NCBI GenBank assembly: GCA_001816455.1
Contig: MHCB01000038.1
Span: forward strand, 7,965 to 71,964
Length of the DNA stretch: 64,000 nucleotides
DNA from: Candidatus Blackburnbacteria bacterium RIFCSPHIGHO2_12_FULL_44_25
GTDB taxonomy: Bacteria > Patescibacteriota > Microgenomatia > UBA8517 > UBA10165
Reading direction: 5' to 3'
Shown: piece by piece, positions 20,214-62,783 of the stretch
Numbering within the stretch: position 1 is the stretch's first letter
How the letters are laid out: every line of letters begins with the position of its first letter
The notes under the pieces: generated by a model
Databases searched by the model: none
What the model was told of the DNA's origin: nothing
What the model saw: only the letters and a program-made list of their open reading frames with translations
Made by a program: the position numbers and the translations under genes

Positions 20214-20843
20214 GTGGAGATGGAATGGTGTGCGAATTTGGCGTATGCGATTGGATTGATTGCTGCTGACGGTTGTTTATCAAATGATGGTAGGCATATA
20301 GAATTGACCTCGAAAGATAAGGAGCAAATACAGACCTTTTCTCGTGCGCTTGGTCTTAAAAATAGTATTGGTTTAAAGAAGAGTGGGTACAACCTATTAG
20401 GGAATTACTTTAGGATTCAGTTCGGAAATGTGAAGTTCTATCGTTTTTTGCTCGAAATTGGTTTGTTTCCTAATAAATCTAAGACTTTGGGTCCTCTGAA
20501 GATTCCACCTCTTTATTTTGCCGATTTCTTGAGGGGGTATTTAGATGGAGACGGAAACATTTCTGTTGCCAAACACCCTCAAAGTAGGTTGCCCCAACTT
20601 CGTGTGAGATTTTCTTCTGCTTCTCTTCTGTATTTGGAATGGCTTAGGAGTTGTGTGAAGAAGTCTTTTGATTTAAAGGGTGGTTTTATTGACAACGGTA
20701 TTTCAAAGTCGAGAGCTTATTATCTGGTTTTTTCGAAGGCGGACTCTGTAAAACTTTTGAGGGGTATGTATTATCGCGGTGTGGATACTTATTTGTCGAG
20801 GAAGTATAATGTTGCTCTGGGGTTTTTCTCGGGCGAGTGGTGA
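20214..20843 (+). CDS. LAGLIDADG family homing endonuclease (free-standing, double-motif)
   Basis: Two LAGLIDADG motifs ([14 protein letters not shown] and [12 protein letters not shown]), low GC. The 3' end overlaps the first 13 nt of tRNA-Leu. Confidence 0.75.
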
Positions 20844-20912
20844 AATTGGCAGACACGTACGCTTTAGGAGCGTATGGGGAAACCCTTGGAGGTTCGAGTC
20901 CTCTCTCGCCCA
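20831..20912 (+). tRNA. tRNA-Leu(TAG)
   Basis: Type II tRNA GGGCGAG-TG-…-TACGC-TTTAGGA-GCGTA-long variable arm-GGAGGTTCGAGTCCTCT-CTCGCCC-A. No encoded CCA. Confidence 0.8.
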
Positions 20913-21001
20913 CAACAAAAAGCGCCCCTTGCGGAGCGCTCTTTGTATACCCGATAAATCGGGATATGCGGTCGCGTCGGATCTTTAGAATCTGACGGAC
21001 C

Positions 21002-23157: not shown

Positions 23158-23254
23158 GTAAGGCATTGGACGTTAGACATTGGAGGTTAGAAGTTGGATC
23201 GTTGGGGTGTGAACTTGTGGTTCAGGGACCCCAACGTGGGCGGGCGGGCGGCAG

Positions 23255-23941
23255 TTAGGTTGTGGGGGCGGCGGATAGGAGTGCCATTGAGTACAGGCAC
23301 TCATATCCCACTTCCAAGTAGGGATAGCAGCCCTCGACAAGGTCGTGGTCGCCTAGGAGTTTGGTGACCCTTATTTTGCAGACTCTGGTATCGACTTCGT
23401 CGACCACTCTGCATACAGCGTGGATTGTTCCACACATGACCTTCCTGTAGAGAACAACGGTTTGGCCGATGGTGGGGAGCGGGCGTAGATATGTTAAGGA
23501 AACGCTCCTGGATTGACCTGTTAGTACAGCATACTTCCCACTTCCGGCGTTTTCCAGAAAGATTATCTCGGCGCTGTCCTCGGCAAGACTGGTTATTCGT
23601 GCTCTGGCTTCTATGCCGGCGTAGGGGTTGTGGTAGGTGGCTTGGCCCCATGCGGCGAGCTGTTCGCGCTGTTTTTGTCTCGTACGACGCTTTTCTTCAA
23701 CGGCGTTGACGATGTCAGGGTGTTCGGCTCTGAGCTGGTCCCAGACGGCTTTCAGGCCTGCCAGCGTTTTTCGGTGCCAACGGCGTCTTTTCCATCCTTC
23801 AAACCGCGAGTCGACGAGCTCTTGTATGTCAGCCTCGGTTGTGTCAGGAAATTTGCCGAACCTGCCGCGGGTTACGGCGAGGAGACGTTCACGGCGACGG
23901 CTACGCACGACGGCTTCACGGTCATCGGCTGTGTATTCCAT
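23255..23941 (-). CDS. hypothetical protein (GC-rich island)
   Basis: About 228 aa, high GC, start at MEYTADDRE. Confidence 0.45.
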   Translation of the reverse strand: MEYTADDREAVVRSRRRERLLAVTRGRFGKFPDTTEADIQELVDSRFEGWKRRRWHRKTLAGLKAVWDQLRAEHPDIVNAVEEKRRTRQKQREQLAAWGQATYHNPYAGIEARARITSLAEDSAEIIFLENAGSGKYAVLTGQSRSVSLTYLRPLPTIGQTVVLYRKVMCGTIHAVCRVVDEVDTRVCKIRVTKLLGDHDLVEGCYPYLEVGYECLYSMALLSAAPTT

Positions 23942-23972
23942 TTTTCTCCTCCACATGAGAATGAGCAGCTTG

Positions 23973-23993
23973 TGACAGGGTGGAACCCTGTCA
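23973..23993. repeat. REP-B palindrome TGACAGGGTGGAACCCTGTCA
   Basis: 9-bp arms with a 3-nt loop. One of six copies in the window. Confidence 0.7.
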
Positions 23994-24061
23994 ATGTTAA
24001 GGTGTGCGTGGGCATTGGGCTCACGACTTAGGGGGATTTTACAGCGTTTTGTTGTCTGGAG

Positions 24062-24454
24062 TCAAACTATGGGTTTGTTGGGGAAGGTGTGTGAGGGTTT
24101 TTCGAAGGTGTCGCGGTGAAAGTTCTTTTGCGAGTCTTTTTGTGTGTAGACGAGGCGTCTTTGAGGAAAAGACAGTCCTTGTAACATTCCGCCAATCATT
24201 AGTCCTTTGAAGAGTGTTGAATCAATCAAACCACCTGATACATAGATTGATATTAAAAGAAGAAGGGTGCAGTTGAACCAGTGATGGAGGTGGATTACTC
24301 TCCCTCTGGCAAATAATCTTATTGCCGGGGACAGCTGCAGTCTTTTTGTGATTTTTATTTCCGGGATCTTATAAGAGAATTTCGAGTGAGGGTGGCTTAG
24401 ATAGTAGAAAGCAGCGTAGCCCGAGATGATGGCAGGGATCAAGGTGAAGTTCAT
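24062..24454 (-). CDS. hypothetical membrane protein
   Basis: 130 aa, multiple hydrophobic segments, lower GC than its neighbours. Confidence 0.4.
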   Translation of the reverse strand: MNFTLIPAIISGYAAFYYLSHPHSKFSYKIPEIKITKRLQLSPAIRLFARGRVIHLHHWFNCTLLLLISIYVSGGLIDSTLFKGLMIGGMLQGLSFPQRRLVYTQKDSQKNFHRDTFEKPSHTFPNKPIV

Positions 24455-24546
24455 TTGAAGGGAGTCAGCACAGTTAGGTTAATTATTCAGGAGCAATGTT
24501 GGAATGTCAAATGACCTAGTGGTAGTGGGTGGTATACTTATTAAGT

Positions 24547-25059
24547 ATGGCGGTAATACTTGACGGTGAAGAAAAAATAACTGCTAGGGCGCATGCAGAT
24601 TTGGAGGGAGATACGATTTCCGGAACTGCGGATTTTGAGGAACTTCAAATTGGCACCCAGACTTTGGTTCGTATAACTGTTGAGCTTTCTGGTGATCCGG
24701 AAAAACTTGTCCCGGGACTTCATGCTGTTCATATTCATGAGAAGGCAAGTTGTGAAGGGGGTTTTAAGTGCGCTGGGGGACATTTTGACCCGGGGCCTGC
24801 GGGGAATACGGACCCGGACGCGAACCATCCTTACCATGCTGGTGATTTGCCGAATATAGAAATCGGAGAGGATGGTAAGGGAAAATTACAGTGTGTTACG
24901 ACTCGTGTAACCCTTTCTCCGGGGCCTCTTTCCATATTGGAAGGTGAGGGCACTTCTCTCATGATTCATGGCAATCCGGACCCTTATCGTGGCGGACCTA
25001 CGGGTTCGGGGATTTCTGGCGGGCCAAGGGTTGCTTGTGGGGTGGTTAAAGTGGTGTGA
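24547..25059 (+). CDS. sodC: Cu/Zn superoxide dismutase
   Basis: …HAVHIHEKASCEGGFKCAGGHFDPG…HAGDLPN…RVACGVV… with metal-ligand His residues and a disulfide Cys. No obvious signal peptide. The TGA stop lies inside the REP-B copy at 25057. Confidence 0.8.
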   Translation: MAVILDGEEKITARAHADLEGDTISGTADFEELQIGTQTLVRITVELSGDPEKLVPGLHAVHIHEKASCEGGFKCAGGHFDPGPAGNTDPDANHPYHAGDLPNIEIGEDGKGKLQCVTTRVTLSPGPLSILEGEGTSLMIHGNPDPYRGGPTGSGISGGPRVACGVVKVV

Positions 25060-25077
25060 CAGGGTTCCACCCTGTCA
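25057..25077. repeat. REP-B palindrome TGACAGGGTTCCACCCTGTCA
   Basis: Identical arms to the other copies; provides the sodC stop codon. Confidence 0.7.
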
Positions 25078-25164
25078 AGGAGAATTGAACGACCGCCTGG
25101 TGCACGAAATGTGCTTGTCCCCGTTTAGGGACCCAGGCGGTCTTGTTGGTTGGTTTGGGCAGTG

Positions 25165-26280
25165 CTAGCTGGTTGAGGCGGCAGCCTCGCGGGCGCGGCG
25201 CTGTTGAGTGCGGACAGTGTGGCAGCGACCAAGGCCCACCTTGTAGAGGGGGCAAGGATCTCGCTGTGTTGAGCTGCACTCGCCTTCTTGGCACCACCGT
25301 TGGCGCTGAGCGTCAAAGACCCGTGGGTTCAGTGACACCATGAGGATCTCAAGGATGTCATGGAGTCCAAGCTTGGTTGGCGGCATGTTCCGAGCGGTAA
25401 GGCTCCCGTTGAGTAGCATCCCGCCATTCGGTTGGTAATACCACTCTTCGGAATGCTCGAGAACTCCCTCCCGACTCAGATCTTTCCATGGCAGATCTCC
25501 GAAAAGCTCCTTGGCTTCCATCTCGCGGATTCGGACCATGTGGACCGTATCGCGCATGGAGCTGCCTGAGGATTGGTTCGGAAGAATTTGTATGTGGCCG
25601 GATGTCTGCTGTTGAACGACGATGTCAGCCTTGTCGCCATACTTAGATCTGGCGTAGCCTAGGACCTGCTTGTTGTTTGAGCGAATCAGGACCACAGTGT
25701 AGACGCGGTTGCTGGGCCCAGGAATTTGTACGACCAACTTGTTCCGGTCGTAGTGCTCCTTGAGTTGGAAAAACCCTTCCTGGTTTTTGATGTATCCGCG
25801 GATGATGGCATCGACCCAGGAACGGACGGTTTCCGGATGATCAGGGTAAGCCAGGTGCATTTGCTTCACAAGTGAAGCAAGATCAAAGGTTCCTGCCTCG
25901 ACCTTTTCGCCGTCCAACATAGTCTCTTCGCCGAGGTCTCGTGCCTTTGTGAAGGCTAAGAGTCTTCCGAGCTCGGGCCTATCTGCGATTCCGAGGTCTT
26001 TGGCAATTAGCGTAGCGGCGCATTCGTTGAGCTTCCTTGCTTGGTCGCCGTTTGCGTGCTCGTCGAACTTGCCTCCCCAGATTCCAACGGCCAATACACC
26101 GCGTGCTTCCCACTCTTCGGCTGAAGTGCCATCGGGCGAGTTGCGGCCTGCGTCGTAGTACACGACTTTGGCGTTTTCAATGCCGGGATACTTCTGGCGT
26201 CCATAGCGCTGCAGTAAATAGATGCCAACATACTCGTCCAGATGTGGGTTGCGGTGCGTGGCGATTTGGTTAATCCGCAT
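25165..26280 (-). CDS. hypothetical protein, possibly UPF0160/MYG1-like metal-dependent hydrolase
   Basis: The N-terminal IATHRNPHLDEY resembles the MYG1 [IG]THxGxFHxDE motif; 371 aa; GC-rich. Confidence 0.35.
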   Translation of the reverse strand: MRINQIATHRNPHLDEYVGIYLLQRYGRQKYPGIENAKVVYYDAGRNSPDGTSAEEWEARGVLAVGIWGGKFDEHANGDQARKLNECAATLIAKDLGIADRPELGRLLAFTKARDLGEETMLDGEKVEAGTFDLASLVKQMHLAYPDHPETVRSWVDAIIRGYIKNQEGFFQLKEHYDRNKLVVQIPGPSNRVYTVVLIRSNNKQVLGYARSKYGDKADIVVQQQTSGHIQILPNQSSGSSMRDTVHMVRIREMEAKELFGDLPWKDLSREGVLEHSEEWYYQPNGGMLLNGSLTARNMPPTKLGLHDILEILMVSLNPRVFDAQRQRWCQEGECSSTQRDPCPLYKVGLGRCHTVRTQQRRAREAAASTS

Positions 26281-26344
26281 GGTGTTCCTCCTTTAAGGAA
26301 CCAGCTAGTAGGTATTGAGATTGCTCATCAATACCAGATTTAAA

Positions 26345-26478
26345 GTGCTGATTCAGCCGAAAGTCTTTCAGCTGACTCTTGGAACTTGCGAACAATTCGT
26401 AAGCTTCAAGAGTGTGTGCCAGCCGAGTGCCCTAGTTTCGCGTTGTTGTAACGCAATTTCAGGCACCCGGACTGGGTG
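26345..26478. repeat. about 135-bp upstream element, copy 1 (direct repeat of 27179-27318)
   Basis: About 90% identical to copy 2 by eye. It lies immediately 5' of the 25165-26280 gene on the minus strand. It contains near-palindromes AAGCTTACGAATTGTTCGCAAGTT and GAAAGTCTTTC. Confidence 0.7.
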
Positions 26479-26482
26479 AGAA

Positions 26483-27139
26483 TCAGTAGATTGGGCGACG
26501 CTTGCCGTAGAGATCTTGGTGGGTTTCTAGATCCTCGATCCATTCGCGAGTGCGCACGCGTCGTTCTCTGTCCCACTGCCGCTGGGTTGTTGGCGTGACT
26601 ACACACTCGATTATGCCGTTGACGGCCAGGAGGGTGAAGGTGCCACGCGGCGTCTTGAGCGTAAAGGTGTCGAGGTGTACCTCCTCTTCGTTGTGTCTAC
26701 CCATGGACACGATTTCGCGTGTCCCCATGAGTAGTTCGACGGGTGTATTGAAATCTGCCAGATAAGGAGAAAGTCCGTCGTAGTTCGCTCGGTGGAACTC
26801 CACGTCCCGTTCGACGACTTCGGTCATTCCCCCAAGCCCTACGTATGCAAGTGTGTATGCTTCTTGTATTGCGTGGGTGATGTCCCCGCGGATGATTTGG
26901 AGGAGTTCACGTTTTGACCGCGCCATATGTATTGGCGTTGACGATCTTTCCGCGAACTCTGCCGACCAGGGGATGCCCTGTGTGTCGTGCCAGATTTCTG
27001 TCTCGTCATCCCGGCGGATTTGAACCCACCGTTCGATGTTAAGGTCACTCGCTGAGTAAAACCTTACGCAGGAGCAGGTACGACAGTGGGTAGGCTTGTG
27101 ATTGTCGCGAGAGCAGTCACACATTGCGCAGTAGTTCAT
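26483..27139 (-). CDS. hypothetical protein with an N-terminal Cys-rich segment
   Basis: 218 aa, MNYCAMCDCSRDNHKPTHCRTCSC…; GC-rich. Confidence 0.45.
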   Translation of the reverse strand: MNYCAMCDCSRDNHKPTHCRTCSCVRFYSASDLNIERWVQIRRDDETEIWHDTQGIPWSAEFAERSSTPIHMARSKRELLQIIRGDITHAIQEAYTLAYVGLGGMTEVVERDVEFHRANYDGLSPYLADFNTPVELLMGTREIVSMGRHNEEEVHLDTFTLKTPRGTFTLLAVNGIIECVVTPTTQRQWDRERRVRTREWIEDLETHQDLYGKRRPIY

Positions 27140-27178
27140 GACAAACCTCCTTTAGGGTCTAATTGATTCTGTTTTTAT

Positions 27179-27318
27179 GGTGCTGATTCAGCCGAAAGTC
27201 TTTCAGCTGACTCTTGGAACTTGCGAACAATTCGTAAGCTTCAAGAGTGTGTGCCAGCCGGGTGCTCTAATTTCGCGTTGTTATACGCAATTTGTATTAG
27301 GCACCCGGGCTGTTTGTG
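27179..27318. repeat. about 135-bp upstream element, copy 2
   Basis: Direct repeat of 26345-26478. It lies immediately 5' of the 26483-27139 gene. Confidence 0.7.
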
Positions 27319-27339
27319 GTTGTGCGGCCTATGTTTGTA

Positions 27340-27966
27340 CTAGTCTAGTATTGTTATTGTCCGCACCTCCATCTTGTTGTAGATCTGAGTGATCAGGTTG
27401 GTAACATCACCGGCGATTCTCAACGTGTCACTCCCACTTGTCCTCTTGGTGTGGAGGAGCAGATGGTCTGGCCTGACGCTTACTAGCGTAACATCGTTGA
27501 GCTTTGCGCACCCGGAGGCCAGACGGTCTGCGCGCAGGTCTTCGTTGCGGCCGGAGTGCAGTCTCAGTGGCTCACCGGTAACAACGTCTACGACCTGGAG
27601 AACTGCTTTCAACTCTGATGGACTGCAACCAAAAACACTGTTGACCTTGAAATAGACGTCGACTTGAGGGACGCTTACCTCCACCGCTTCTTGTGTGTCC
27701 TCTTGTTCTGTCGGGAACAAGTTTCTTATGTGCAAGAGTCCTATGCCGATCAACATAAGGTTCATGTTGCCGAGTACGTACGTGAGAGGTATGGTAGCCA
27801 ACCCGAAAATTCCCACGAGGCTAGCTACCGTACAGAAAAAGGCTCCGATCACGAACAAGCCCAGGCCGCAAATCACCAGTAGTAATTTCACCAATGCCAG
27901 TGCCATCTGTTTCTCCTTCTGTTGCTCTTTGGCAACGGTCTGGGCTCTTTTTTTTGAAAAACCCAC
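27340..27966 (-). CDS. hypothetical membrane protein
   Basis: 208 aa, two N-terminal TMs then a soluble domain. Confidence 0.45.
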   Translation of the reverse strand: MGFSKKRAQTVAKEQQKEKQMALALVKLLLVICGLGLFVIGAFFCTVASLVGIFGLATIPLTYVLGNMNLMLIGIGLLHIRNLFPTEQEDTQEAVEVSVPQVDVYFKVNSVFGCSPSELKAVLQVVDVVTGEPLRLHSGRNEDLRADRLASGCAKLNDVTLVSVRPDHLLLHTKRTSGSDTLRIAGDVTNLITQIYNKMEVRTITILD

Positions 27967-28101
27967 ATTGTTGCCTTTGAGCGTTAATTAAGGTGCAATC
28001 TATTTAAAAACACCAATTGCTTGCTGTTTTTAAGCGATTGCCGGGTACCGATCTTGTGCACGATGTGTGCGACGAAGACCGGCACCCGGTGGAAGGAAGA
28101 G

Positions 28102-28587
28102 TTAGATCTGCGACGGCCCGAAGGGACCGTTGATGTTCCAGTGGTCACTGGAATTGATGAGCTTTCCTTCATCCGACATAGGGTCGGAGGCCTCAAAGAT
28201 GCGAGCGATGTCGCCGCCTTCTACCGAATAGATGGCAGCAACGCCAAACGATCCGTCTGGACGGGCAGTGGTGTGGTTCACCGTGAACCAGAACGATGTC
28301 TTCATGGCCCCAAGGCCACACTTGAGGGGGATCTCCGACTCAGGCAGTACGACCAGGCCGTCATTGGTACCACCATTGTGTTGGTGGCAGAATCGTGCGA
28401 GGTCGTACAAGTCTCTCAACTGCACTGGCGTGTGGATGGCCAAATGGTCCTCGTCGCCTAGTACTTTGCTGAGAACGGCGTCCTCGGACGCTGTCGGTGC
28501 CTTTGCTCCTGCCCAGATGACTGGTGTGCTAGGAAAAAAGGTCCTCAGTGGTCCGGCGTCCTTGCTGTTTGCGGCAACTAGTTGCAT
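28102..28587 (-). CDS. hypothetical protein (GC-rich; strand assignment uncertain)
   Basis: 161-aa ORF, co-directional with neighbouring genes. Overlapping + strand ORFs of similar length exist. Confidence 0.3.
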   Translation of the reverse strand: MQLVAANSKDAGPLRTFFPSTPVIWAGAKAPTASEDAVLSKVLGDEDHLAIHTPVQLRDLYDLARFCHQHNGGTNDGLVVLPESEIPLKCGLGAMKTSFWFTVNHTTARPDGSFGVAAIYSVEGGDIARIFEASDPMSDEGKLINSSDHWNINGPFGPSQI

Positions 28588-28860
28588 TTTCTTCCTTCAT
28601 ATTTTCTGTGTGCTTATTGCAATCACAGGCGGCTTGTTAAGCAGCACACTGGCTACCTCAACTTGCACGAAAGAGATATACCAGAGTGCTACCAACAAGC
28701 TTTATTCAAGGTGCTAAGCTAATCCTGCTCGCTGCTGCTCCCAGGATCTTCGGCAACGTTTTGCCTCGATGTGTAAACGAGGCAAAAAGCGGCCTCGAGA
28801 TTATTTAAGTATTGTACCTCAAAGAAGCTCAAAAGTCAACTACTACAGGTTACTGCATGG

Positions 28861-28935
28861 AAAAGCCCCCGGTCTCGCGTCAGTCGTCTGGTTTCGTTGT
28901 TGAGACGAATCGTTGACGGCGAGGTCCGGGGGCTT
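28861..28935 (-). terminator. long hairpin terminator after the 28960-29535 gene
   Basis: Minus strand AAGCCCCCGG…CCGGGGGCTTTT with an internal substructure. Confidence 0.45.
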
Positions 28936-28959
28936 GTTGGTACCAGTCGGTACCTGGTT

Positions 28960-29535
28960 TTAGGATGTGTTTGGACGGAGGAGCGCAGTTAGCTTCTCTT
29001 GGTGCCCTTCGTCCTTTGGTATGGTGAGCAGCTCCTCTGCGGTGGTCCCGACTGATTCCGGCTCGAGCTTCCCTGCTTCCAAATGGAAGAGAAAGTGGCG
29101 CCAGGCACCGGTTTTCCCTGTCTTGATCAGTTCGAGATCGTGGGCGGCCGCCTCGGCGTTGTACTCCCTCTCGAGCATATTGAGCTCTTCTGGTGAGGTA
29201 CCGATTGCTCGGAGGGCGTCGGAGTCTGTAGGCAGTTTGGAGAGCATGTAGTAGAACAAGCACCCTCCTTCCCGCAGGTCTCTGAGCACTTCTTGAGCTG
29301 AGGGTTCTGGATCAGTGTTGTGTGATCCGTACATCACCCTCAATACCATGGCTTCCTGATCCTCTGGGAGACCAAGGGCTGCTGCGACCTCGGCTGCGCG
29401 GCCTTCCATGTCGAACATCATTCCCCGCATCCTTTGTTGCCAACCTACGTTCATTTTCAGCTCCTCTATTGTGTTTGAGAGCTTCTCGACTCGCCTAAAG
29501 GTTTGGTCGAGGTATAAAAGGTGCCAGAAAAGCAC
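28960..29535 (-). CDS. hypothetical protein
   Basis: 191-aa GC-rich ORF; likely start at MNVGWQQRMRG. Confidence 0.4.
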   Translation of the reverse strand: MLFWHLLYLDQTFRRVEKLSNTIEELKMNVGWQQRMRGMMFDMEGRAAEVAAALGLPEDQEAMVLRVMYGSHNTDPEPSAQEVLRDLREGGCLFYYMLSKLPTDSDALRAIGTSPEELNMLEREYNAEAAAHDLELIKTGKTGAWRHFLFHLEAGKLEPESVGTTAEELLTIPKDEGHQEKLTALLRPNTS

Positions 29536-29641
29536 AATTGCTCGTGCTTTTACTACGCCTATTGTAACACGAAACAGCTACGATGTCAAAGATTATGGGA
29601 TAGCATGATACTGAACTTCCAGTCTTCAAGTAGACAGGTTG

Positions 29642-29690: not shown

Positions 29691-31067
29691 ATGTCAACTA
29701 AAACCACTTCGGCTCCGGAAGTTGCCCCTCCTCTTACAATTGCCACGCTCAAAAAATATGCACAGGAAGTTTTTACGCCCATACGGCGGGGTGAGTGCGT
29801 AAGTACAATCTGGCCCTTGATGGCTGGTAGACGGATTAGGAATAAATTCATTATCTCCTACCCCGAACTTTTCTCGGAAGAAATTGGGAATCCTTCAAAA
29901 TATCTGCTTGTGTATGTTGAACCTTTAGAACTTACCGAAGAATCAAACAGCGGATTTATAAGACTTGTTGCAAAGTCTATTCTTGAGGCTTTTTCTCAAA
30001 AAAACACGAAGGCTTTTAAAATTGGCGCAGAACTTTCATTTGACGAATCATTAGGGTATTCGACTCTTCTTGATCGTTTAGCACAGCTTGTTTCCACGGT
30101 GTCTTCTTTTGGGTTGGCGACTGTTTTATTTTTGGGGGAGTTTGATGAGCTTTCGTTTGCAAATTCGATTCTGCACAATAATCTTAAATCTGTTTGGGCA
30201 AGAGCTGGCGGCAGTTTGCAGTTTATCTTTCTTTTGCAGGATGATGTTACCAGGCCTGAGTCTATTAAGAAATATGACGAGATAAATTCTTTGCTTTTGC
30301 GGAATGTAGTTTATGTTCCTTTGGTTGGGGACGAAGATATTGATTATCTTATTGATTATTTTGCGAAGCGTTTGGATAGGTCTTTTTCGAAAGATGAGCG
30401 GACTCTTCTCCGAGAAGTTTGCGGAGGGCATCCATATCTTCTTAGTTCTTGTACGAGGCTTATTGCTTTGATGAATGAATGTCAAGCTTCTCTTGAGGAG
30501 ATACGAGAGGTGTTGTTATCTCATTTTGAGCCGAGATCGGCTACTCAAAAGATATTTGATAATCTTTTACCTTCGGAGCAAGAATTTTTGAAGAACATGG
30601 TTTTGGGCAATGGTACTGCTGTTACCAATTTGCCCCCTTCGGTGTCCTCTCTTTTAAACTTGGGACTTATTAAAAAAGACGAGGAGGGCAAGTGGGTTCC
30701 GTTTGGAGAGATTTTTGCTGCTATCATTAAGGGCGATCAGGTTGAAGTTGCCCACTCGCCTGATTCGGGTTCTCACGGTTTGCACTACGATGAGTCTACT
30801 GGAGGAATTACTGTTGGCGGTGTAAATGTTGAAGAGAAATTTACGCGGCAGGAATATGATATTTTACGCTTCTTTTTGAAGGATTTGACCAAACTTCGGT
30901 CACGGGAGGAAATTGGTGAGGCCATGTGGGGCGAGCAGTCGTATGATAAGTATTCCGATTGGGCAATTGATCAGATAATGAGTAAACTTCGTAAGAAACT
31001 CAAAAGTTTAGGTATGGAGAAGGCCTTAGTTACTGTTCGAGGGCGGGGGTACAAGTTTTCTATTTAG
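29691..31067 (+). CDS. transcriptional regulator with a C-terminal OmpR/PhoB-type winged-helix domain and a large uncharacterised N-terminal domain
   Basis: C-terminus …TRQEYDILRFFLKDLTKLRSREEIGEAMWG…ALVTVRGRGYKFS (trans_reg_C). No receiver domain and no obvious P-loop. Confidence 0.65.
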   Translation: MSTKTTSAPEVAPPLTIATLKKYAQEVFTPIRRGECVSTIWPLMAGRRIRNKFIISYPELFSEEIGNPSKYLLVYVEPLELTEESNSGFIRLVAKSILEAFSQKNTKAFKIGAELSFDESLGYSTLLDRLAQLVSTVSSFGLATVLFLGEFDELSFANSILHNNLKSVWARAGGSLQFIFLLQDDVTRPESIKKYDEINSLLLRNVVYVPLVGDEDIDYLIDYFAKRLDRSFSKDERTLLREVCGGHPYLLSSCTRLIALMNECQASLEEIREVLLSHFEPRSATQKIFDNLLPSEQEFLKNMVLGNGTAVTNLPPSVSSLLNLGLIKKDEEGKWVPFGEIFAAIIKGDQVEVAHSPDSGSHGLHYDESTGGITVGGVNVEEKFTRQEYDILRFFLKDLTKLRSREEIGEAMWGEQSYDKYSDWAIDQIMSKLRKKLKSLGMEKALVTVRGRGYKFSI

Positions 31068-31070
31068 GGA

Positions 31071-33338
31071 TTATCTGGGAGCGTATTCTCTGAGCACTTC
31101 GTTATTGATATGTGTGACAGACGGGATTATCTCATCGGTAGACAGTCCCCTTTCTCTACCGCCGACTGCTTCTTTGCCCCAATGTTGGATTGCGTATGGG
31201 AGCGAAGTTTCTTTTAGTGCGTGGGGTTTTGTGCCTTCCGCGAGCTCTTTTCTTACTGCTGAGGAACCGGAGTAGGTTCCGGCGGTTATGATAACAGTTT
31301 CGATGCCTGTGTGTCGGCTGATTGCTTGGAAGTTTCGTATTGTTGTGTGAGTCGATCCGGGTCTTGAAACCAATATGGCCCCTGGTCTTGTTACCCTTTC
31401 GGGTTGTCTTTCTCGCGGAGCAAGATCCCTGCCTCCATTTTCCCATACACATTCTTCTGGCCCCATCAGTTGATAGCATTCCAATTCTACGTCCGGGTCT
31501 CTTCCGGCCTTATTTAAATCATTCCACAATTGCGCCTGTATGTTGTTTGCGGTTATGACCATTCTTTGGCTCATGTCGGTTTTTGTTGGGTCTGGTTGGA
31601 GTGCGGTGGTCATCATAACTTCTGATCGGTCAAATTCGTATCCGGAACCTAGTAGGATAGATCCTGTTCGGATTCTAATGGGACCCACGTGGGCTGTAGA
31701 TTTCTCGTAGCCCTCAACGTTTTGTGTACGAACTATGGGGAGTATGATTATGGCTCGTTGAATTGGTTTTCCGTCGCTCGTTGTTTGCGGAAGTGATTTG
31801 AGGTGGGCGTTACCGCACCAGACAAGATCCTCATGTCCTTTTGTCCAAGGGGCAAACGAACCAGGGAAGAAATAGATCCTAAAGATGCGGACCCCCGGTT
31901 TAACTACTTTGGAGAGGTCCACGTCTGCAATATCTTTCCAGGGGTTGATTCGAAGTTTTTCGGCAGCGTAACGGGCAGCATGGGGGAACGGAATGAGGCC
32001 TGCTCGCATGGCTTCCCTTCCAATATCTCGCACAAGGTGGGGAAAATAAGTAATGATGAGGTTGGTTAATGGTCCAATGTTGTCTATTCTGGCAGATTCG
32101 GCCGCCTTTACTAGGGCTTTGGCAATTTCCCTGTCTGAGAGGCCTGCGTTCTCGGCTTCGTGAATGGAGAGTGCTGCGAATTGTGCAAAGTCTTCGGGCC
32201 GAGGGACAAGTGATTTTTTGTCGGCTGTAACAAGCGACGTTCGGTAGGCATAACTGAACACCTCACCGTATCGCTGTTTAAGTTGCCTTTCTACAAGTTT
32301 GAGTTCTAGTTCGAGATCTTGAGCCCAGGCTTGTTTTCTCAGGGAGATTTGCAGTTTGGCAATAGAGTTACGCAGAGCGATAAAGGGTTGAAAGAGTATT
32401 TCGGCCTCTCGGCCCTTGATTGCTGTTGGGGGTTTCCAGAGGTCTGTAAGAGATTCTACATCTTGGCCGATTGTTGTTCCAATGATGGCTTTAAGAAAGA
32501 CAGTCGCTGCTTGGGCATTTTCTTTACTTGTGGAGATCTTTGTATCTAACCAGGAGTAGAAGACATACTCGGACTCTTTATATTTAAGAGTGTTTAGTAT
32601 GTCGAGAAGACTTTTGGGGATTGTTAAGTCATGATTGGGTTTATATATATTTGTGGGTATTTCCGTACTTGTTCTTAGCCCGTAGAGGCATAATGCCAGA
32701 GTGTTGGTGAGTTGAGTTACTACGTTACCTGGCTCGTCGCAGAGTCCCATGATTGTTAGTGCGTCCTCCAGGGTTTTTTCCAAAAGGACTTCGCCAGGAG
32801 GGGCAGGCTCTACCCAGGCTGTTGGGGTTCTTAGTTCGGCGTGAAGGTCTTCGCAAAAGGTAGTTAGGAGTTTGTGGAATTGCGGTTTGGTTAGACCGGG
32901 TACTCTTTGCGCCGGATCTTTGTGGGGTTTTCCTCTAACCAGCTTTCGGATTGGGTCAAGTTTGAGCAATTGAGCTCCCACCCACCTGACAAAGACGTTC
33001 TCTCCTTGTGGCATTGTTGAGCGTATTGTTTTCATGCGCTCTTCTACAAGTTTGGTTGGCCATCTTTCCACGATTTCAAGTAATTTTTCTAATTCTCCGC
33101 CTTTTCCTGGATAGAGTTCGACGTACCCGAAGGGAATTGGCTTTTCTCCTTTTACTGCGTCTTGTAGTGCTGCAATTAGTCCGAGGTGTGTTGTTACCTG
33201 TTTTACTATGTGTGGCACACCTTCAGGTTGGGCAGATGTTCCTCTTCCGTCGGGCATAAAGAAGGTTCCCGTTTCTCTTATGCCAAGGTAACGTTCGGAT
33301 AGTGCTGTCATTTGACTTAAAAAGGCCGCGGTTACCAA
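31071..33338 (-). CDS. large protein with a C-terminal cytidylyl/adenylyltransferase-like nucleotidyltransferase domain
   Basis: 755 aa. It has an (H/T)xGH-type motif FPGSFAPWTKGHEDLV and a C-terminal …TAGTYSGSSAVRKEL (ISSTxxR-like) motif of the NadD/cytidylyltransferase superfamily. The N-terminal roughly 470 aa is uncharacterised. Confidence 0.45.
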   Translation of the reverse strand: MVTAAFLSQMTALSERYLGIRETGTFFMPDGRGTSAQPEGVPHIVKQVTTHLGLIAALQDAVKGEKPIPFGYVELYPGKGGELEKLLEIVERWPTKLVEERMKTIRSTMPQGENVFVRWVGAQLLKLDPIRKLVRGKPHKDPAQRVPGLTKPQFHKLLTTFCEDLHAELRTPTAWVEPAPPGEVLLEKTLEDALTIMGLCDEPGNVVTQLTNTLALCLYGLRTSTEIPTNIYKPNHDLTIPKSLLDILNTLKYKESEYVFYSWLDTKISTSKENAQAATVFLKAIIGTTIGQDVESLTDLWKPPTAIKGREAEILFQPFIALRNSIAKLQISLRKQAWAQDLELELKLVERQLKQRYGEVFSYAYRTSLVTADKKSLVPRPEDFAQFAALSIHEAENAGLSDREIAKALVKAAESARIDNIGPLTNLIITYFPHLVRDIGREAMRAGLIPFPHAARYAAEKLRINPWKDIADVDLSKVVKPGVRIFRIYFFPGSFAPWTKGHEDLVWCGNAHLKSLPQTTSDGKPIQRAIIILPIVRTQNVEGYEKSTAHVGPIRIRTGSILLGSGYEFDRSEVMMTTALQPDPTKTDMSQRMVITANNIQAQLWNDLNKAGRDPDVELECYQLMGPEECVWENGGRDLAPRERQPERVTRPGAILVSRPGSTHTTIRNFQAISRHTGIETVIITAGTYSGSSAVRKELAEGTKPHALKETSLPYAIQHWGKEAVGGRERGLSTDEIIPSVTHINNEVLREYAPR

Positions 33339-33509: not shown

Positions 33510-33731
33510 ATGACACAACAAAGAGTTGTCGAGCCCGTACAGGAATGGTTACTTGCTCAAGGTCGCTGCACCGGATGCGGTGAGTCACTTGAGGAAGCTG
33601 AGAAGCAGGAGTGCCAAGGGTTTTGGATGGTTATATGCCAGTGCGAGCGCGTTTTTATATATGACGCGCGAACTGGCGTTTATCGAAGACGTGCGTTGAG
33701 GGGTGTATCAAGTTGGAGAGGAGCGTATTAA
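33510..33731 (+). CDS. small Cys-containing protein (zinc-ribbon-like)
   Basis: Strong RBS GAAAGGAGG 8 nt upstream of the ATG, CxxC…CxC pattern, followed by a strong terminator. Confidence 0.55.
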   Translation: MTQQRVVEPVQEWLLAQGRCTGCGESLEEAEKQECQGFWMVICQCERVFIYDARTGVYRRRALRGVSSWRGAY

Positions 33732-47100: not shown

Positions 47101-48769
47101 ACGAAAGTTTCTTTTAATGCCCAATCCCCCTGTTTCCGATCAGGCACCAAGACCAGGATTAGGAAAGATCGTAGCGGATATTAGAAATAATTCTCCCGTC
47201 TTTGAGGAGCAGTGGAAGACGGATAGTTTTTTAAGATCGTTGGATGACATAGAGAAAGATCCCTTTAAGATACTTGCGCCCCCAGGAAGTTCTGATAGAG
47301 AAACTGCTGTATATAGGCTAATTGGTGATGCGGTTCGGAAGGATCCCGTTGCTCAGAAGGAGGTTCAAGAGGCGGTAAATTCTTATTATTCAAGCTATGT
47401 TGATATTTTGAAGAGAGTTGAAGCTCAGACTGAGATTCCGAACACTCCCGGAGAATATATGCTGTCTGCTGCTAATTCGTTTTCTGCGCGAGTTCAGGGA
47501 GTTGGACAGTTGATTACAGGTGGATTTAGCGCTTTGAATCCGTTCAAGAAAGCCGGAGTTAGTGTTGATCTAAAGCCAGTTCCTGTTCGGTCAATTGGGG
47601 GTTCAGAGGGAATTTCTGCTGGCAGACAGGGTGTCACGGAAGGTTTGGTGCAGGTGGTAGATGTAGGTAGTTCGCAGACGGTTTTGGGAGTGGGCACGGA
47701 AAATGTACAAGCAAAGGCGTTGTTTACTGGAGTTGATACGACTCTTCCGGTATCAAGCTATACACTGTCGCAGGCTATAAGCGAGGTGCCAGAAGACGGA
47801 GGCGTTCTAAGCGAGGAAACACTTGCAAAAAGCCTTGCGTCGAGTGTTTTGGAGCCCGAAGGATATAGAATTGGTAATAACTATGTTTTGGCAACAGGAG
47901 AAGATGGGAATGTGGTTGCGAAGATTCCTTCGGGGAGATATTCATTGCAGGCAAGGCCAGTTGATACTGTTCTTTTAACAGGGATGCCTGGGGAGTTTTA
48001 CCTTGGGCCCGGTTTGGGGGCAAAGGTATTTGTTGGGGTGTATGCCGCCGACCCGCCTGTTGGCGAGGCAGGTGGAGAGAAGGTTGTCGGTCGGGCCCAG
48101 GTGATTCCAACAAACGATGGCGAACTTACCGTTCAGTTGTACGACGACACAAACGGAAACGGCCTACGCGAAGCCGGAGAAAACACAATTAAATGGGCTG
48201 GGGTTGTTTTCACTGCTGCCCAAGAAGAAACTATCGGCGAAGTCTCGCTTCTTAACGGTTGGAATTTGGTAGGATTCTCAAATACTCCCCGAACGGTTAA
48301 AACCGCTTCCGGTTTGGTGCGTGAAGTTGTAAGGCAAGGAGGAGATGTTACTGCCATTTCAAGGTTGGTTGATGATCGTTGGGAGACGTATGTTCAACGG
48401 GGAAGCGAAACGTTTGGCAACGACTTTCCGTTGGAAGCAGGCAAAGGATATTTTGTTCGTTCGAGAGTCGCCTCAACAATTCTTCTTGGAGGAGAGCCGG
48501 TTACTAATACAAGGATAAAGCTTTCGCGCGGATGGAATGTTGTTTCTACGTCCGGGGCGGCAGAACCTATCACTGTTTCTGCATTCATTGATAAGATGGT
48601 TATGGCAAGAAGGACATCTGAGCCCGATGTTGTCTCTCGTTGGGAATCAGGGTTGTGGGATTCGTTTGTCAAAAAAGCTGGAGAGGATTATGGAAACGAC
48701 TTCCCCATTGCTCCATTTCGTGGTTACATCATAAAAGCCAAAGACGATGTTGAGTTTGAGTTTCAATAG
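38108..48769 (+). CDS. giant secreted multidomain protein (3553 aa) with a J-domain, a PP2C-like phosphatase core, an HExxH motif, Cys-rich modules, a coiled coil and Ca-binding C-terminal repeats
   Basis: Single uninterrupted ORF. Good RBS (AAGGAGGG). Signal peptide MRVFLKKAGVIFLVFVNFISPLYPVVWITPVRAS. P/E/Q-rich linker. Three GCCxD…C…NGAC modules. A/E/R/Q-rich coiled coil. J-domain DYYKILGVS…KKWHPDV…LTD. PP2C motifs TTLVGGTVVNGKLLAVSYGDSYIYILRDG / GDRVIFASDGF / GDDVTIG. DHERVHG motif. DDTNGNG SdrD-B-like repeats. Confidence 0.8.
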   Translation: MRVFLKKAGVIFLVFVNFISPLYPVVWITPVRASQEQSSLLAYSDDDGDGVPDEVSEEQPPEEAPVEEPQPSEDAPQPDVPQEEAPPQEAPPQESPPQEENEPVQDQPSDSPPSPPEAAPPPQEVVSAPSIPEQPSGSGTGGYFTPGDGSSPSAPTPTFCPSVGKYEGDEYQECYGPGTSRHVRISGCSWQIVQEVVSNPACPGAGTPESTQFQDTQEQNNTEENYCSGLGRYKGSTWSVCSGNPGEATAWQASAACEAVSVGSAGEPNCAGSVGSLPQDGVGSLPLPGESTQVLNPSPSISACGIEMSFQRCVLGTTTLISGVMLSTVDLETQKCTTTEQIQSTSENSTSCGYSDVSQDKIPPGSGGCCNVDDDCVAQGFEGQECLVSNGACSGAGKSCATPQAEVAAKIKSGVDGCCSDGSQCGSGEECYVGNGACRSGLSCGAERTNSGSGGCCSDFSDCASQGLKFNGCFSSFDAGLCKSGQSCRPISCSGAQFCSGGTACYDQGQCANYQAELARQRAQAALASARSQCYSSLEPGCVAILAGGDQIVIEDAGQAQSLCNTNTVTGYSCGGATAAASSANSSGLRSTSGLAVGDRVIVDGVETTITEVDGSLVKVANNPYWFGEFYAKSVSEKPAQNQSFGQIIILPDGQQAAVKSVKANGDLVLWDGKEISSSSNTAKPIVPKEAATVNTSLSCNDFFEQEYTAPTVADGETVSVSGSKYQCSLGGWTKIGNADDGTFFPDAINPGVKQLAIQVGANVHLGQDDRRAPTFLDVLPVLPGMSKAETDYEKVLRVLNELGIPPEFDPNNPISARVWTEEKKIEFAKRVGQETDRSPLATVMRSLENTPLGFVVNLVSDVNIGELSDHISGAGAILQFAQGESRDAHFSEADAIADNKYTDEEFAVLAQAMQEKGVIANTSELPNKGDLALYDRVVKEFLAKQAFGSYGLQVVGPDQVAVLRRQLETDPAKLEELKNFANFTGIVSAEESDKLTPGFMATGRVGTEKIQSYQKGTYQSAAGQAFLEEAGEAAQGVAQDLAFVAGANVAIAIAAEAGAGRIVGWGVGRVAGTEVGQAVAKFATHSILKIPSEEVLSDVTREGLDVAKREYLEAQRARVLAFGDEAVSGSESFLQKNADEARRKLEEAYRGAFGDDADKVLESAVSKLDIMAGADVSQIVREQGEEYAQKFAGQTSVSDAVVNPSVVADNAFSPADQVVAASSRQGRVVLESIPDGAAGVVDDIPTNYPGVVAEVAEVTDSIDARGGGGFVQDAQDAVGGFFGRFRRSELDPLEAVEDRIAAEAVGDVSARTVDVSPATSRFTKMTPKSIDDAVEMTEDARRFKARLDDLARRIDGVTDNTVRRQLEEEVDQTRGTLIVIRKKADEAIEEIQSFRQDDEVVSRIKAEMEQTRVIASNVGGGNVFDTLKTRFEELPLPSFLRGGSESQLAPYKFEFTPEERLRIEAAKQDLKVKREEALARSRAQVEAIKKEQIDAEARVAAETVEAQQRRQAAQLAQDEAERARLIAESEASAQRAKAAEAEARAKARTANEEQARQASREQDVAARDEEIIEAQIIAERQVADARAKEETRQQATEFLSRQRELEERANRAKSAADEAERKLRQVDNAIAARQTEIDVTIAQAFALRDQYQIVKDLESDLLDSIPEQAHKILVSADYYKILGVSPSATTDEINRAYRSLSKKWHPDVSSQDLEAATLAFKKLTYAKDVLTDTIPIQGATGVYVRRNYYDAASHDAIRQQILAKDPSNFSDAVAYINRQQAKMSEAARAVEQANQRAQQAVRAAEPLNSRIEELQRAREQYLQSAEQHTRTVQAAEQDLQTAAREVMQGQPLTPTQVAYRELNDAGQEYTEKLAEVRTLREERKVAASGGVAGLDFADATSRLDAAEVELKQAAERVKAAQLAYQDSVQSPVERAGGAISDFFDQVTSFFGRGRSASQVADATEVVADVGRVAGPSLRFVQPTAQQVVPASPGLKVGSGVNVSSSGQDAFATGISSAAVADGVSTGGTPSQVVELAQLAANALVERLDAAASRFTDPVLAKQYLENSVTEFAQFVVRQNFELGAARGLYGPEALKQASTTLVGGTVVNGKLLAVSYGDSYIYILRDGKLIKVNEQVKEYLGYNEPNLVSVIIHDLQIGDRVIFASDGFVSFISDNARGKIVKAAGSTNDPQVFALRAQEILRDYYREKGVGDDVTIGSLFYGDLDVKPGLLDGLFDRVPAARSFYISKTDVQASTLSIHARNSAGDIVETRLSVEEVIHRGASSLGDKFTDGAKKQVLLELRGKGVPQSTLDEISRELKRIKKPEDVRSKLVKFTGIPVLGEPTAVSGGVFKSLGLTFPWSEKKFVVEKLEGDQGFAGIRVTARDANGVERKIIIDPSNVDGSYQYPANGFDYKLDELRELGVDERTIQQIDKQLERMAKKSVFDKTPVGQVGGSPFAPANDVAQQTDDVCKVLGASTDSVLGTSTTGGCQKPSLFDLLNPFNKIQPASKIDDVVTVVTSPEETKAIASRLIKTEESTVKMGDFSLSTIKGDDPTNDGLIFYLKPGQNLPKNVVITDKSGNVVDLGKRDTPLLFSDVRKIEIDGTDYSLAHDIWQNPMLFEIRGSSKDAKFDEVIGDITEIWDTAIKSPRRMDAVLAKNFTGEEISAMKKITDFYAQDPNIGGLTAPYDLDTVVELPDDKLAEYLNRTLPFRQVRESDISVFTGLISALKEGRAFTEKEADMFSALEFRHVVATRNVYRGLDEVYITEFNRQFALANMAEAVLSTRLVSKKPFKEHAKHYGDFVELMQSRGVEVPEWVTPFNSDDFRYGIKTDGTKANAAGQYFVSRLEDFDSMAQVLDHERVHGLSKVAYNRNVEFKIRNKLDVEYDRGFASDEGYTDALAYLIKSGGDVDKAIAENAKSTSSYRLASDEILRVAKEVGAASGDEMLGVELLFRGITDRANSSVNRSLVPIQRYYDEKVADSGAKFEERMARFSDKRKFLLMPNPPVSDQAPRPGLGKIVADIRNNSPVFEEQWKTDSFLRSLDDIEKDPFKILAPPGSSDRETAVYRLIGDAVRKDPVAQKEVQEAVNSYYSSYVDILKRVEAQTEIPNTPGEYMLSAANSFSARVQGVGQLITGGFSALNPFKKAGVSVDLKPVPVRSIGGSEGISAGRQGVTEGLVQVVDVGSSQTVLGVGTENVQAKALFTGVDTTLPVSSYTLSQAISEVPEDGGVLSEETLAKSLASSVLEPEGYRIGNNYVLATGEDGNVVAKIPSGRYSLQARPVDTVLLTGMPGEFYLGPGLGAKVFVGVYAADPPVGEAGGEKVVGRAQVIPTNDGELTVQLYDDTNGNGLREAGENTIKWAGVVFTAAQEETIGEVSLLNGWNLVGFSNTPRTVKTASGLVREVVRQGGDVTAISRLVDDRWETYVQRGSETFGNDFPLEAGKGYFVRSRVASTILLGGEPVTNTRIKLSRGWNVVSTSGAAEPITVSAFIDKMVMARRTSEPDVVSRWESGLWDSFVKKAGEDYGNDFPIAPFRGYIIKAKDDVEFEFQ

Positions 48770-54777: not shown

Positions 54778-54981
54778 GTGTATAACTGGAACATAAACAC
54801 TTCAAAACTTAAGAAAAACCCTGAGAAATATGCTGTTTGGAAACTTGAGCAAAGTATTAATTTTGGCCTTAACGGGAAAAAACTGAAGATTAGTGAGTTA
54901 AAAAAGTATTGGGCTAAACTAGTTGTTGACCCACAAAGAAAAAAACTTCTAGAAATGTGGCTATGGCCAAAACAATCTTAA
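54778..54981 (+). CDS. small protein upstream of AbiEii (possible truncated AbiEi-like antitoxin)
   Basis: 67-aa ORF with a GTG start, 8 nt after an extended -10 (TGGTATAAT at 54761-69). Overlaps the AbiEii start. Confidence 0.25.
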   Translation: MYNWNINTSKLKKNPEKYAVWKLEQSINFGLNGKKLKISELKKYWAKLVVDPQRKKLLEMWLWPKQS

Positions 54982-55622: not shown

Positions 55623-55650
55623 TTTGATCTTGGAGCGGCTATCTTAAACT

Positions 55651-55938: not shown

Positions 55939-56157
55939 TTCTAAAATATAGCATACCCTTCTTTCTGTACGCTCTGTTCCTTTCAGAGCTCCTAATGCAC
56001 TTTTGTTCGAACACCTTTTAGCCTGGCTTGATAGCTTAAGGCAGTTATATCAAAAAGAAAAGGGAACTGATATTTATTTCTATATGACATTGATATAATA
56101 CAGATACAAGGGAAGGTTAATGAGTTTTAGAATTTAACAACCTTATTAATTTCATTC

Positions 56158-56688: not shown

Positions 56689-56705
56689 TTACATGCCACG
56701 TAAAT

Positions 56706-62764: not shown

Positions 62765-62783
62765 CTCCTGTTTGCTTTCCTAA

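Follow-up and report, generated by a model that had tools for sequence, protein, structure and literature searches.

A probable strain-variable genomic island of single-gene units beside REP and hairpin repeats in Candidatus Blackburnbacteria

The DNA considered here is a stretch of 64,000 nucleotides (the window) whose source is named in database records as Candidatus Blackburnbacteria bacterium RIFCSP..., from the Rifle aquifer (Microgenomates, within the candidate phyla radiation (CPR)/Patescibacteria), and it is from this aquifer that the Blackburnbacteria lineage was described (PMC5079060). Between positions 23200 and 29550 it carries a GC-rich block that is probably a strain-variable genomic island of single-gene units, heterogeneous in origin and mostly Patescibacteria-specific or of unknown source, which turn over beside repetitive extragenic palindromes (REPs) and hairpin repeats. 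On this reading the island would lie downstream of a gene for a DRG-type GTPase, and its right edge would fall beyond the border originally predicted, at about 33.7 kb. It would consist of single genes in a row, of which at least several have promoter-like sites of their own, and individual genes would be gained, lost and swapped between closely related lineages at breakpoints that adjoin REP palindromes and a 135-nt hairpin repeat. Six genes that are rich in G and C at third codon positions (GC3) would have been drawn from a gene pool that is Patescibacteria-restricted or unknown, and not from Actinobacteria.

Two observations speak for an island: the composition of six of its genes deviates from that of the backbone, and its content varies between close relatives, the variants found in sister lineages (V2 and V3) differing from that of the window (V1). 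Genomic islands, and gene transfer that is mostly confined to the phylum, have been documented for Patescibacteria (PMC12455944), and the present island would be a further example of those already described. It shares with such islands and plasticity zones an atypical block, content that varies between close relatives, a preponderance of hypothetical genes, and relatives that, where they can be found, lie within the phylum (PMC12455944). It differs from them in having no integrase, no directly adjacent tRNA gene and no identified donor, and in mixing GC-rich genes with native ones and, in the sister lineages, with AT-rich ones. Two of its aspects go beyond ordinary islands, namely the persistent GC excess of the DHH-fold family to which its 371-aa protein belongs, and the REP system with its transposase. 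The features of the island and of its right-hand extension are as follows.

23255 to 23956, minus strand: 233-aa gene (GC3 0.59), function not assigned
23973 to 23993, unstranded: REP palindrome TGACAGGGTGGAACCCTGTCA, exact copy
24062 to 24454, minus strand: 130-aa predicted membrane protein, near-backbone composition
24529 to 25059, plus strand: Cu/Zn superoxide dismutase SodC (Pfam Sod_Cu, 1.8e-30, full profile covered)
25057 to 25077, unstranded: REP palindrome TGACAGGGTTCCACCCTGTCA, exact copy, overlapping the SodC stop codon
25163 to 26480, minus strand: single-gene cassette, comprising the 371-aa DHH-fold gene (25165-26280) and its upstream leader with repeat copy 1; absent from the sister variant V2
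26339 to 26474, minus strand: 135-nt three-hairpin repeat, copy 1, upstream of the 371-aa gene (fold -81 kcal/mol, z = -7.9)
26483 to 27139, minus strand: 218-aa strict orphan with a Cys-rich N-terminus (GC3 0.63)
27174 to 27312, minus strand: 135-nt three-hairpin repeat, copy 2, upstream of the 218-aa gene (fold z = -6.8)
27340 to 27966, minus strand: 208-aa predicted membrane protein (GC3 0.61)
28102 to 28587, minus strand: 161-aa gene (GC3 0.66)
28960 to 29535, minus strand: 191-aa (or 164-aa) gene (GC3 0.64)
29691 to 33338, unstranded: low-GC part of the variable segment, with 458-aa (plus strand) and 755-aa (minus strand) proteins, both absent from V3
33688 to 33698, plus strand: GACGTGCGTTG, right-hand copy of the short direct repeat at the junction of an 8.6-kb indel (from comparison of V1 with the sister loci L061 and L063)

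Composition of the island

At 52.5% GC, the region 23200-29550 has the highest value of any 6.35-kb interval in the 64 kb, its flanks having 45.0% and 44.8%; sliding-window GC gives the same picture, and the tetranucleotide distance from the window median is maximal at 25.5-28.5 kb, in coincidence with the island. These peaks bear out the GC-rich block of the original prediction, although the 58-62% GC assigned to it there was too high (single island genes range from 43.5 to 55.8%) and the public annotation has eight genes (locus tags A3D26_02630-02665) instead of nine. A shift of GC and codon usage throughout the block had also been proposed, and this applies to six genes and not to SodC or the 130-aa gene. 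The six, all on the minus strand (23255-23956, 25165-26280, 26483-27139, 27340-27966, 28102-28587 and 28960-29535), have GC3 values of 0.59-0.66, that is, z = 4.8-6.6 relative to 51 backbone genes (mean 0.420, standard deviation 0.036), and the contrast is concentrated at synonymous positions. Third positions in the window are strongly strand-asymmetric, with G3 0.27, C3 0.13, T3 0.37 and A3 0.23 in plus-strand genes and the mirror image in minus-strand genes (C3 0.28, G3 0.14), and codon comparisons therefore need strand matching. Against the strand-matched backbone, the six genes are raised in C/(C+T) (0.69-0.78 vs ~0.60) and in G/(G+A) (0.39-0.58 vs ~0.26); a codon bias in the form of a pure T-to-C shift proved to be an artefact of mixing the strands under this strong skew. 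The cumulative GC skew climbs monotonically across the window, the whole of which therefore lies on one replichore.

SodC and the 130-aa gene are indistinguishable in composition from the strand-matched backbone: SodC has a GC3 of 0.39 and the third-position pattern of backbone plus-strand genes, and the 130-aa gene has values (C/(C+T) 0.68, G/(G+A) 0.30) near those of backbone minus-strand genes. The island thus falls into two GC3-rich segments (23255-23956 and 25165-29535) separated by a SodC module that looks native. SodC is the sole island gene with a family assignment. The Cu/Zn superoxide dismutase of the original prediction is borne out by the Sod_Cu match and by His/Asp metal-ligand motifs (HAVHIH, GGHFDP, HPYHAGD, MIHG) that are intact in the predicted protein, but a mycobacterial type is not, as the codon usage is native and the NCBIfam scores are far below the equivalog cut-offs, with the Caulobacter-type model slightly above the mycobacterial-type one. 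SodC and its membrane partner, native in composition, are probably old residents of the locus.

The 233-aa gene has an allele in the sister L059 with 88% nucleotide and 90% protein identity, and the ratio of nonsynonymous to synonymous divergence between the two (dN/dS 0.24) identifies this open reading frame (ORF) as a real gene under purifying selection; the AF2 model of the protein is unusable (pLDDT 50.6). Public copies of the 208-aa protein are all 100% identical save for start-site calls and one 4-residue deletion, and those of the 191-aa protein are 99-100% identical. Promoter-like sequences are present for the 161-aa gene (TTGACT-17-TACAAT at 28839-28811) and the 191-aa gene (TTGACA-17-TACAAT at 29589-29561). 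Among 1.84 billion representative proteins, the 218-aa protein finds only itself. The 233-, 208-, 161- and 191-aa proteins match no Pfam, PHROG, NCBIfam or PADLOC family and have no close relatives in IMG/VR; the 233- and 191-aa proteins gave no tblastn match among plasmids, and the island DNA gave none among phage and plasmid records. Orphan genes gained by horizontal transfer usually have more A and T than their host, whereas these island genes are GC-rich.

Variants of the locus and the repeats beside them

With genes named by the length of their products in amino acids, the order in V1 is GTPase, 233, REP, 130, SodC, REP, 371, repeat, 218, repeat, 208, 161, 191, 458, 755. V2 is represented by L059, L061 and L062, from three samples (L059 equals L061 throughout their overlap, and L062 shares 97.6% identity with L061), and reads GTPase, 233, REP, a 180-aa GC-rich gene, 130, SodC, a 356-aa gene, REP, 218 and so on. 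Its 356-aa gene is low in GC (GC3 0.31), and it has no 371-aa cassette; the 371-aa gene together with one 135-nt repeat (~25163-26480) is present in V1 and absent from V2, and so constitutes a clean one-gene indel. V3 (L063) is 99.2% identical to L061 up to GACGACGTGCGTTG, at which point it joins the region of the 356-aa gene straight to window position 33685 and onward, without the ~8.6 kb (to window 33684) that hold the 218- to 755-aa genes. Within this segment the 458-aa protein has a C-terminal winged-helix domain (Pfam Trans_reg_C, 3.3e-14), and the 755-aa protein has no Pfam match. That sister lineages differ in the genes they hold here shows lateral gene flux at the locus. A metagenome scan with the flanking GTPase for empty sites returned one distant locus only.

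An 11-14-nt direct repeat is found at the V2/V3 junction, that is, at the ends of the 8.6-kb indel. L061 has GACGACGTGCGTTG immediately ahead of its REP, the window has GAAGACGTGCGTTG, ending at 33698, and L063 has one copy of the repeat, joined to AGGGGTGTATC as in the window. V3 truncates a 73-aa ORF, which makes a deletion between short repeats the simpler reading of this variant. Synonymous divergence (dS) between V1 and V2 is a mosaic: the 130-aa gene is far removed from its sister allele (1.59), the GTPase gene has 0.38, SodC 0.29 and the 233-aa gene 0.19, and there is 100% identity over the 103 bp at the end of the 218-aa gene (dS ~0). The segment at 26.5-29.5 kb may have arrived or spread in the population recently, the SodC module being old.

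The REP sequence TGACAGGGTnnnACCCTGTCA has six exact copies in the window, compared with 0.01 expected by chance. The SodC module lies between those at 23973 and 25057; the left one has its 3-nt loop reverse-complemented in the sister L059, and L061 and L062 retain the right one at their corresponding junction (loop TCA). The genes specific to V2 are inserted just inside these two REPs, the 180-aa gene adjoining the left one, and the 371-aa cassette lies ~80 nt outside the right one. Copies of this element (REP-B) had been predicted at the island borders. The copies are real, but the two at 23973 and 25057 lie around SodC inside the island and not at its outer borders. Further copies accompany a transposase gene elsewhere in the window.

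61920 to 62653, plus strand: REP-RAYT unit, with an IS200-like Y1 transposase ORF at 61953-62408 that continues out of frame in 62342-62635

Judged by its sequence, ORF 61953-62635 is a REP-associated tyrosine transposase (RAYT), apparently frameshifted. It scores 27.8 bits against Pfam Y1_Tnp (cut-off 23), bears the HUH/Tyr motifs YHVYNRG, MPNHFHLL and YIHLNP, and adjoins tRNA-Leu (62681-62765). REP copies are located at 61920, 62131, 62421 and 62633; the outer pair flanks the gene and two lie inside the reading frame, where each translates as TGFHPV. As a Y1 transposase is flanked by the same palindromes, the label 'REP' is correct. The arrangement is like that of known REP/REPIN-RAYT systems (PMC3116915, PMC3337134) in its short GC-rich palindrome with several copies, and in its single IS200-like Y1 transposase gene, which has HUH and Tyr motifs and is flanked by those same palindromes. 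It is unlike them in belonging to a CPR genome and, as far as can be read from the DNA, in having an apparently frameshifted gene and two REPs within the putative reading frame. In a full-text literature search, no paper turned up with a genuine connection between RAYTs or REPINs and Patescibacteria.

The two copies of the 135-nt hairpin repeat are 91-95% identical and are situated just upstream of a conserved ribosome-binding site, TAAAGGAGG, so that the 218- and 371-aa genes have the same site and the same upstream repeat. Rfam recognises only tRNAs in the window and gives no match to the 135-nt repeat, nor was the repeat found upstream of DHH homologues in other genomes. The REP and hairpin repeats may promote rearrangements of the locus, and with a RAYT in the same window and REP copies beside breakpoints, the role of REP elements in the gene turnover of tiny genomes becomes testable.

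Several points weigh against the interpretation of the block as a strain-variable island of laterally exchanged genes. The precomputed Pfam annotation of 15165-36280 contains no integrase, transposase or other mobility gene; no att-like direct repeats were found at 23.2 and 29.5 kb; no tRNA gene is adjacent, tRNA-Lys and tRNA-Arg being 1.3 kb off with the GTPase gene between; and no donor has been identified for any GC-rich island gene. V3 is known from a single contig. The 233-, 208-, 161- and 191-aa genes are no more than probable orphans, judged by family libraries and IMG/VR and, for the 233- and 191-aa proteins, by plasmids. Finally, the island genes share the third-position strand skew of the host's minus-strand genes, which fits long residence as well as recent arrival.

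The DHH-fold family and other accounts of the GC-rich genes

The 371-aa protein has no match in Pfam, NCBIfam, PHROG, PADLOC or PDB sequences, and PDB sequence searches with the protein and with a profile of its family found nothing significant. In an alignment of 25 relatives, H9, H13, D15 and D73-E74-H75 are invariant (the motif being DEH and not DHH), an LLNGSLT motif is conserved, and there is a C-terminal CxxGxC...CPWY...RC module. The second half of the protein is matched by AlaRS C-Ala (DHHA1-like) domains and Foldseek agrees weakly with a DHH-type assignment; the protein has the DHH plus DHHA1-type two-domain fold that defines the DHH phosphoesterase superfamily. The gene had been described as encoding an MYG1-like hydrolase, which is right at the level of the superfamily (DHH-fold) but not at that of UPF0160 (PF03690), since that model is matched by 0 of the 25 members even at E <= 5; ChrB_C is weakly matched by 8 of the 25. 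Unlike the DHH-family phosphoesterases (NrnA, PggH, GdpP, RecJ, Cdc45, PPX1) and MYG1/UPF0160, the 371-aa family has no Pfam DHH, DHHA1 or UPF0160 match, reads D-E-H instead of D-H-H and, in most members, bears a C-terminal four-Cys module. The enzyme may act on short RNA or nucleotide phosphoesters.

A search of 5.8 billion proteins with the 371-aa protein yielded 31 clusters, all named ones from Patescibacteria, and a scan of GTDB (one genome per species) yielded 40 loci in CPR-type metagenome-assembled genomes (MAGs), none of them actinobacterial. The hosts of these loci are Jorgensen-, Wildermuth-, Vogel-, Nealson-, Staskawicz-, Falkow- and Doudnabacteria, Paceibacterota/Parcubacteria and Saccharibacteria MAGs, and a handful of MAGs with the family bear the labels Gammaproteobacteria or Bdellovibrionales; IMG/VR holds no relative. 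The best hits of the one island gene with relatives therefore lie in the same phylum, an outcome that the original prediction had named as speaking against its own proposal. Family genes are embedded among housekeeping genes in varied contexts, with a tRNA gene within 350 bp in ~7 of 37 loci. In L011 (2964-5778) the DHH-fold gene directly follows a gene for a CCA-adding enzyme/poly(A) polymerase and tRNA-Pro(CGG). Such proximity to the CCA-adding enzyme and tRNA genes may reflect a role connected with RNA or insertion near tRNA genes. No other island protein occurs beside DHH homologues in 43 CPR loci, and the island is therefore not a conserved cassette.

In 40 of these 43 loci (L011-L054) the DHH family is richer in GC than its neighbourhood, with means of 50.9% and 42.4%, a maximum difference of +23 points (Wilcoxon 6e-8) and a slope on host GC of 0.41, and a GC3 excess of at least 0.15 over the locus median is found in 53% of DHH loci vs 4.7% of 430 neighbouring ORFs. 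As high GC marks the family in nearly all genomes where it occurs, this composition is a family property and not the mark of recent import. The syntenic loci L019, L025, L027 and L035 are informative here (the DHH gene is at 9992-11059 in L027 and at 9959-11014 in L035). Their flanking proteins are 65-81% identical and the DHH gene itself 41-47%; four-fold sites of the flanks are near saturation (identity 0.33-0.44 vs 0.27-0.35 expected at random) and their GC content (GC4) has re-equilibrated genome by genome (0.22-0.34 in L027, 0.44-0.69 in L035, 0.21-0.31 in L019), whereas the DHH gene retains a GC4 of 0.54-0.82 beside flanks at 0.21-0.69. Simple unameliorated transfer cannot explain a GC excess in syntenic orthologues whose sites are saturated. 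In the DHH gene tree each of the five synteny groups forms a clade, and between the closely related L025 and L027 the DHH gene has diverged at synonymous sites as much as its flanks (0.25 vs 0.24-0.28 per codon); polarised substitutions in this pair (17 GC-to-AT vs 7 AT-to-GC) are unreliable, the outgroups being saturated and compositionally biased. Either high GC is maintained in the family, or copies from a GC-rich pool have taken the place of the gene again and again at the same sites. Translational selection is an unlikely source of the high GC, the neighbouring ribosomal-protein and EF-Ts genes being the most AT-rich at third positions. Sporadic ORFs with a GC3 excess of at least 0.15 occur elsewhere in the CPR loci (L024 13200-14358, L045 11198-20581, L048 8813-9781, L053 119-1938), and several of them start with signal-peptide-like or membrane-like N-termini.

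It is tentatively proposed, as a possibility on which we would not yet rely, that a DHH-fold family restricted to Patescibacteria, with a Cys cluster at its C-terminus, is kept 10-25 GC points above its host at synonymous sites across vertical lineages while its flanks re-equilibrate, and that the island shuffles this and other GC-rich cassettes beside REPs mobilised by a CPR RAYT. If true, this would imply that a protein-coding gene in reduced genomes is subject to selection at the nucleotide level or to a biased process specific to the gene.

Extended to the block as a whole, the same data lead to an intrinsic native mosaic, in which long-standing Patescibacteria genes have their high GC maintained by selection on mRNA or DNA or by a biased process, and the island is the place where they cluster. 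Its support lies in the GC and GC3 excess across the CPR loci, in the GC4 that syntenic orthologues keep beside near-saturated flanks, in the agreement of gene tree and synteny groups, in the equal synonymous divergence of the close pair and in the host strand skew of the island genes. We nevertheless regard this account, even for a part of the GC-richness, as unlikely, though as the foremost alternative. It is demonstrated for one family only, and the 371-aa gene that represents this family is a presence/absence polymorphism between sister lineages; the 218-aa gene, having no relatives at all, cannot be an old family; the 208/191-aa segment lacks allelic divergence while its neighbours diverge, and so looks recent; and no enriched motif or k-mer, such as an uptake or Chi-like sequence, was found in the island to point to a mechanism.

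It is very improbable that the island is what remains of a prophage or integrative element, or that it is an integron-like array of cassettes with the 135-nt repeats as recombination sites, for all its resemblance to such an array. Integron cassette arrays and clusters of attC sites lacking integrases (CALINs) are likewise made up of co-oriented, single-ORF orphan units with similar structured repeats between them and show cassette-wise presence and absence; the clean one-gene indel with exactly one repeat copy, the direct repeat at the 8.6-kb indel junction and a composition unlike that of the host also point in this direction. However, there is no intI nearby and no integrase in the Pfam annotation of 15165-36280, and inspection of the 135-nt repeat finds no canonical attC boxes (GTTRRRY/RYYYAAC). 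The repeat has two copies only, stands 5' of the ORFs and forms three hairpins, not one, and at least some of the genes have promoter-like sites of their own. In addition, the best PHROG match has an E not below 0.08, there are no IMG/VR relatives and no phage or plasmid DNA match, and the truncation of the 73-aa ORF in V3 fits a deletion between short repeats.

DapD, the question of an actinobacterial donor and other features of the window

The original prediction linked the island to a second GC-rich gene, taken to be a mycobacterial-type DapD.

4269 to 5450, minus strand: long-form DapD (tetrahydrodipicolinate N-succinyltransferase; Pfam THDPS_N, THDPS_M, Hexapep)

This gene has 59.6% GC and a GC3 of 0.69 (z = 7.4). 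Its closest relative is 71% identical and lies on a ~70% GC contig, with a GC3 there of 0.90, and the next relatives (58-59% identical) are on 64-69% GC contigs, in an ordinary free-living context (MFS - DapD - aminotransferase - RecO - cdd). The contigs of the 71%- and 58%-relatives have 69-72% GC, the latter's 69%, and on them the gene matches its surroundings. Named matches, at 55-57% identity, are from Chloroflexota and Planctomycetota. Against PDB the protein aligns full-length to 2rij and over its C-terminal part to 3fsx, 5e3p and 3r5a; the best PDB score of the C-terminal domain is with the M. tuberculosis enzyme (302 bits), which aligns only over the C-terminal 250 residues and lacks a matching N-terminal domain. 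DapD is a partly ameliorated import from a non-CPR donor of ~70% GC, and an actinobacterial source is not favoured. The prediction of a high-GC donor for this gene is thereby upheld (relatives' contigs of 69-72% GC), but its mycobacterial type is not, the named relatives being Chloroflexota and Planctomycetota.

DapD conforms to the amelioration model of transferred genes, which is reportedly due to Lawrence and Ochman in 1997, in that its GC3 of 0.69 is intermediate between the donor-like 0.90 and the 0.42 of the host. The DHH family does not, as its GC3 excess persists across syntenic orthologues with saturated synonymous sites. Since the amelioration reading does not cover this family, families of its kind can mislead calls of horizontal transfer in CPR genomes that are made from GC content.

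More improbable still is the model in which an episymbiotic CPR cell took up the island from an actinobacterial host of high GC. The atypical GC and codon usage of the island, the import of DapD from a donor of ~70% GC and the affinity of the DapD C-terminal domain to the M. tuberculosis enzyme are what such a history might leave behind. However, no island gene has an actinobacterial relative (the 371-aa family is from Patescibacteria and the 218-aa protein has no relatives), so that the actinobacterial-type content originally ascribed to the block is not found. SodC has native codon usage and no mycobacterial affinity, and the named full-length relatives of DapD belong to other phyla. To our knowledge, the host of Blackburnbacteria is not known, which also counts against the proposal, as does a survey of aquifer Patescibacteria in which Actinomycetota account for 1 of ~130 inferred donor events (PMC12455944). 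Of the acquisition from a high-GC donor that had been predicted, the import of DapD and the lateral flux at the locus stand, but no high-GC or actinobacterial donor has been found for the island genes, and transfer from an actinobacterial host to its symbiont has no support in those genes for which a test was possible. Real and properly assembled as it is, the island provides no evidence on the host of the CPR bacterium.

An assembly chimera as the cause of the GC transitions, against which the original prediction had cautioned and which has nothing in its favour beyond their abruptness, can be discarded, because the exact 371-aa protein is present on at least 23 contigs and 10 of the 10 contigs that were fetched, independent MEGAHIT, JGI and original Rifle 'ANAN16' assemblies from at least eight different samples, are 99.92-100% identical to window 15165-36280 and colinear over both borders.

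The other GC-rich patches that had been listed alongside DapD are confirmed at 52941-53534 (53.9%), 61000-61450 (55.2%) and 62784-63530 (53.9%); the ORFs 52941-53534, 61236-61481 and 62784-63530 have no family matches, yet are GC3-rich for their strand. The window also contains an AT-rich patch at 54957-57350, of which 55600-57350 has 33% GC and two ORFs with GC3 ~0.25. This patch is the second tetranucleotide outlier of the window, adjoins tRNA-Gly and tRNA-Pro, includes an AbiEii toxin gene (54957-55622) and is probably another acquired block. A LAGLIDADG-domain ORF at 20214-20913 (LAGLIDADG_3, 6e-12) overlaps the start of tRNA-Leu(TAG) with its 3' end, and a single ORF of 3553 aa (38108-48769) fills 10.7 kb. 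Among the loci used for comparison, L013/L014 (9144-15851), from Hainich groundwater Patescibacteria, carry one 2235-aa gene with both Rpb2 (beta) and Rpb1 (beta-prime) domains, which indicates a fused rpoBC.

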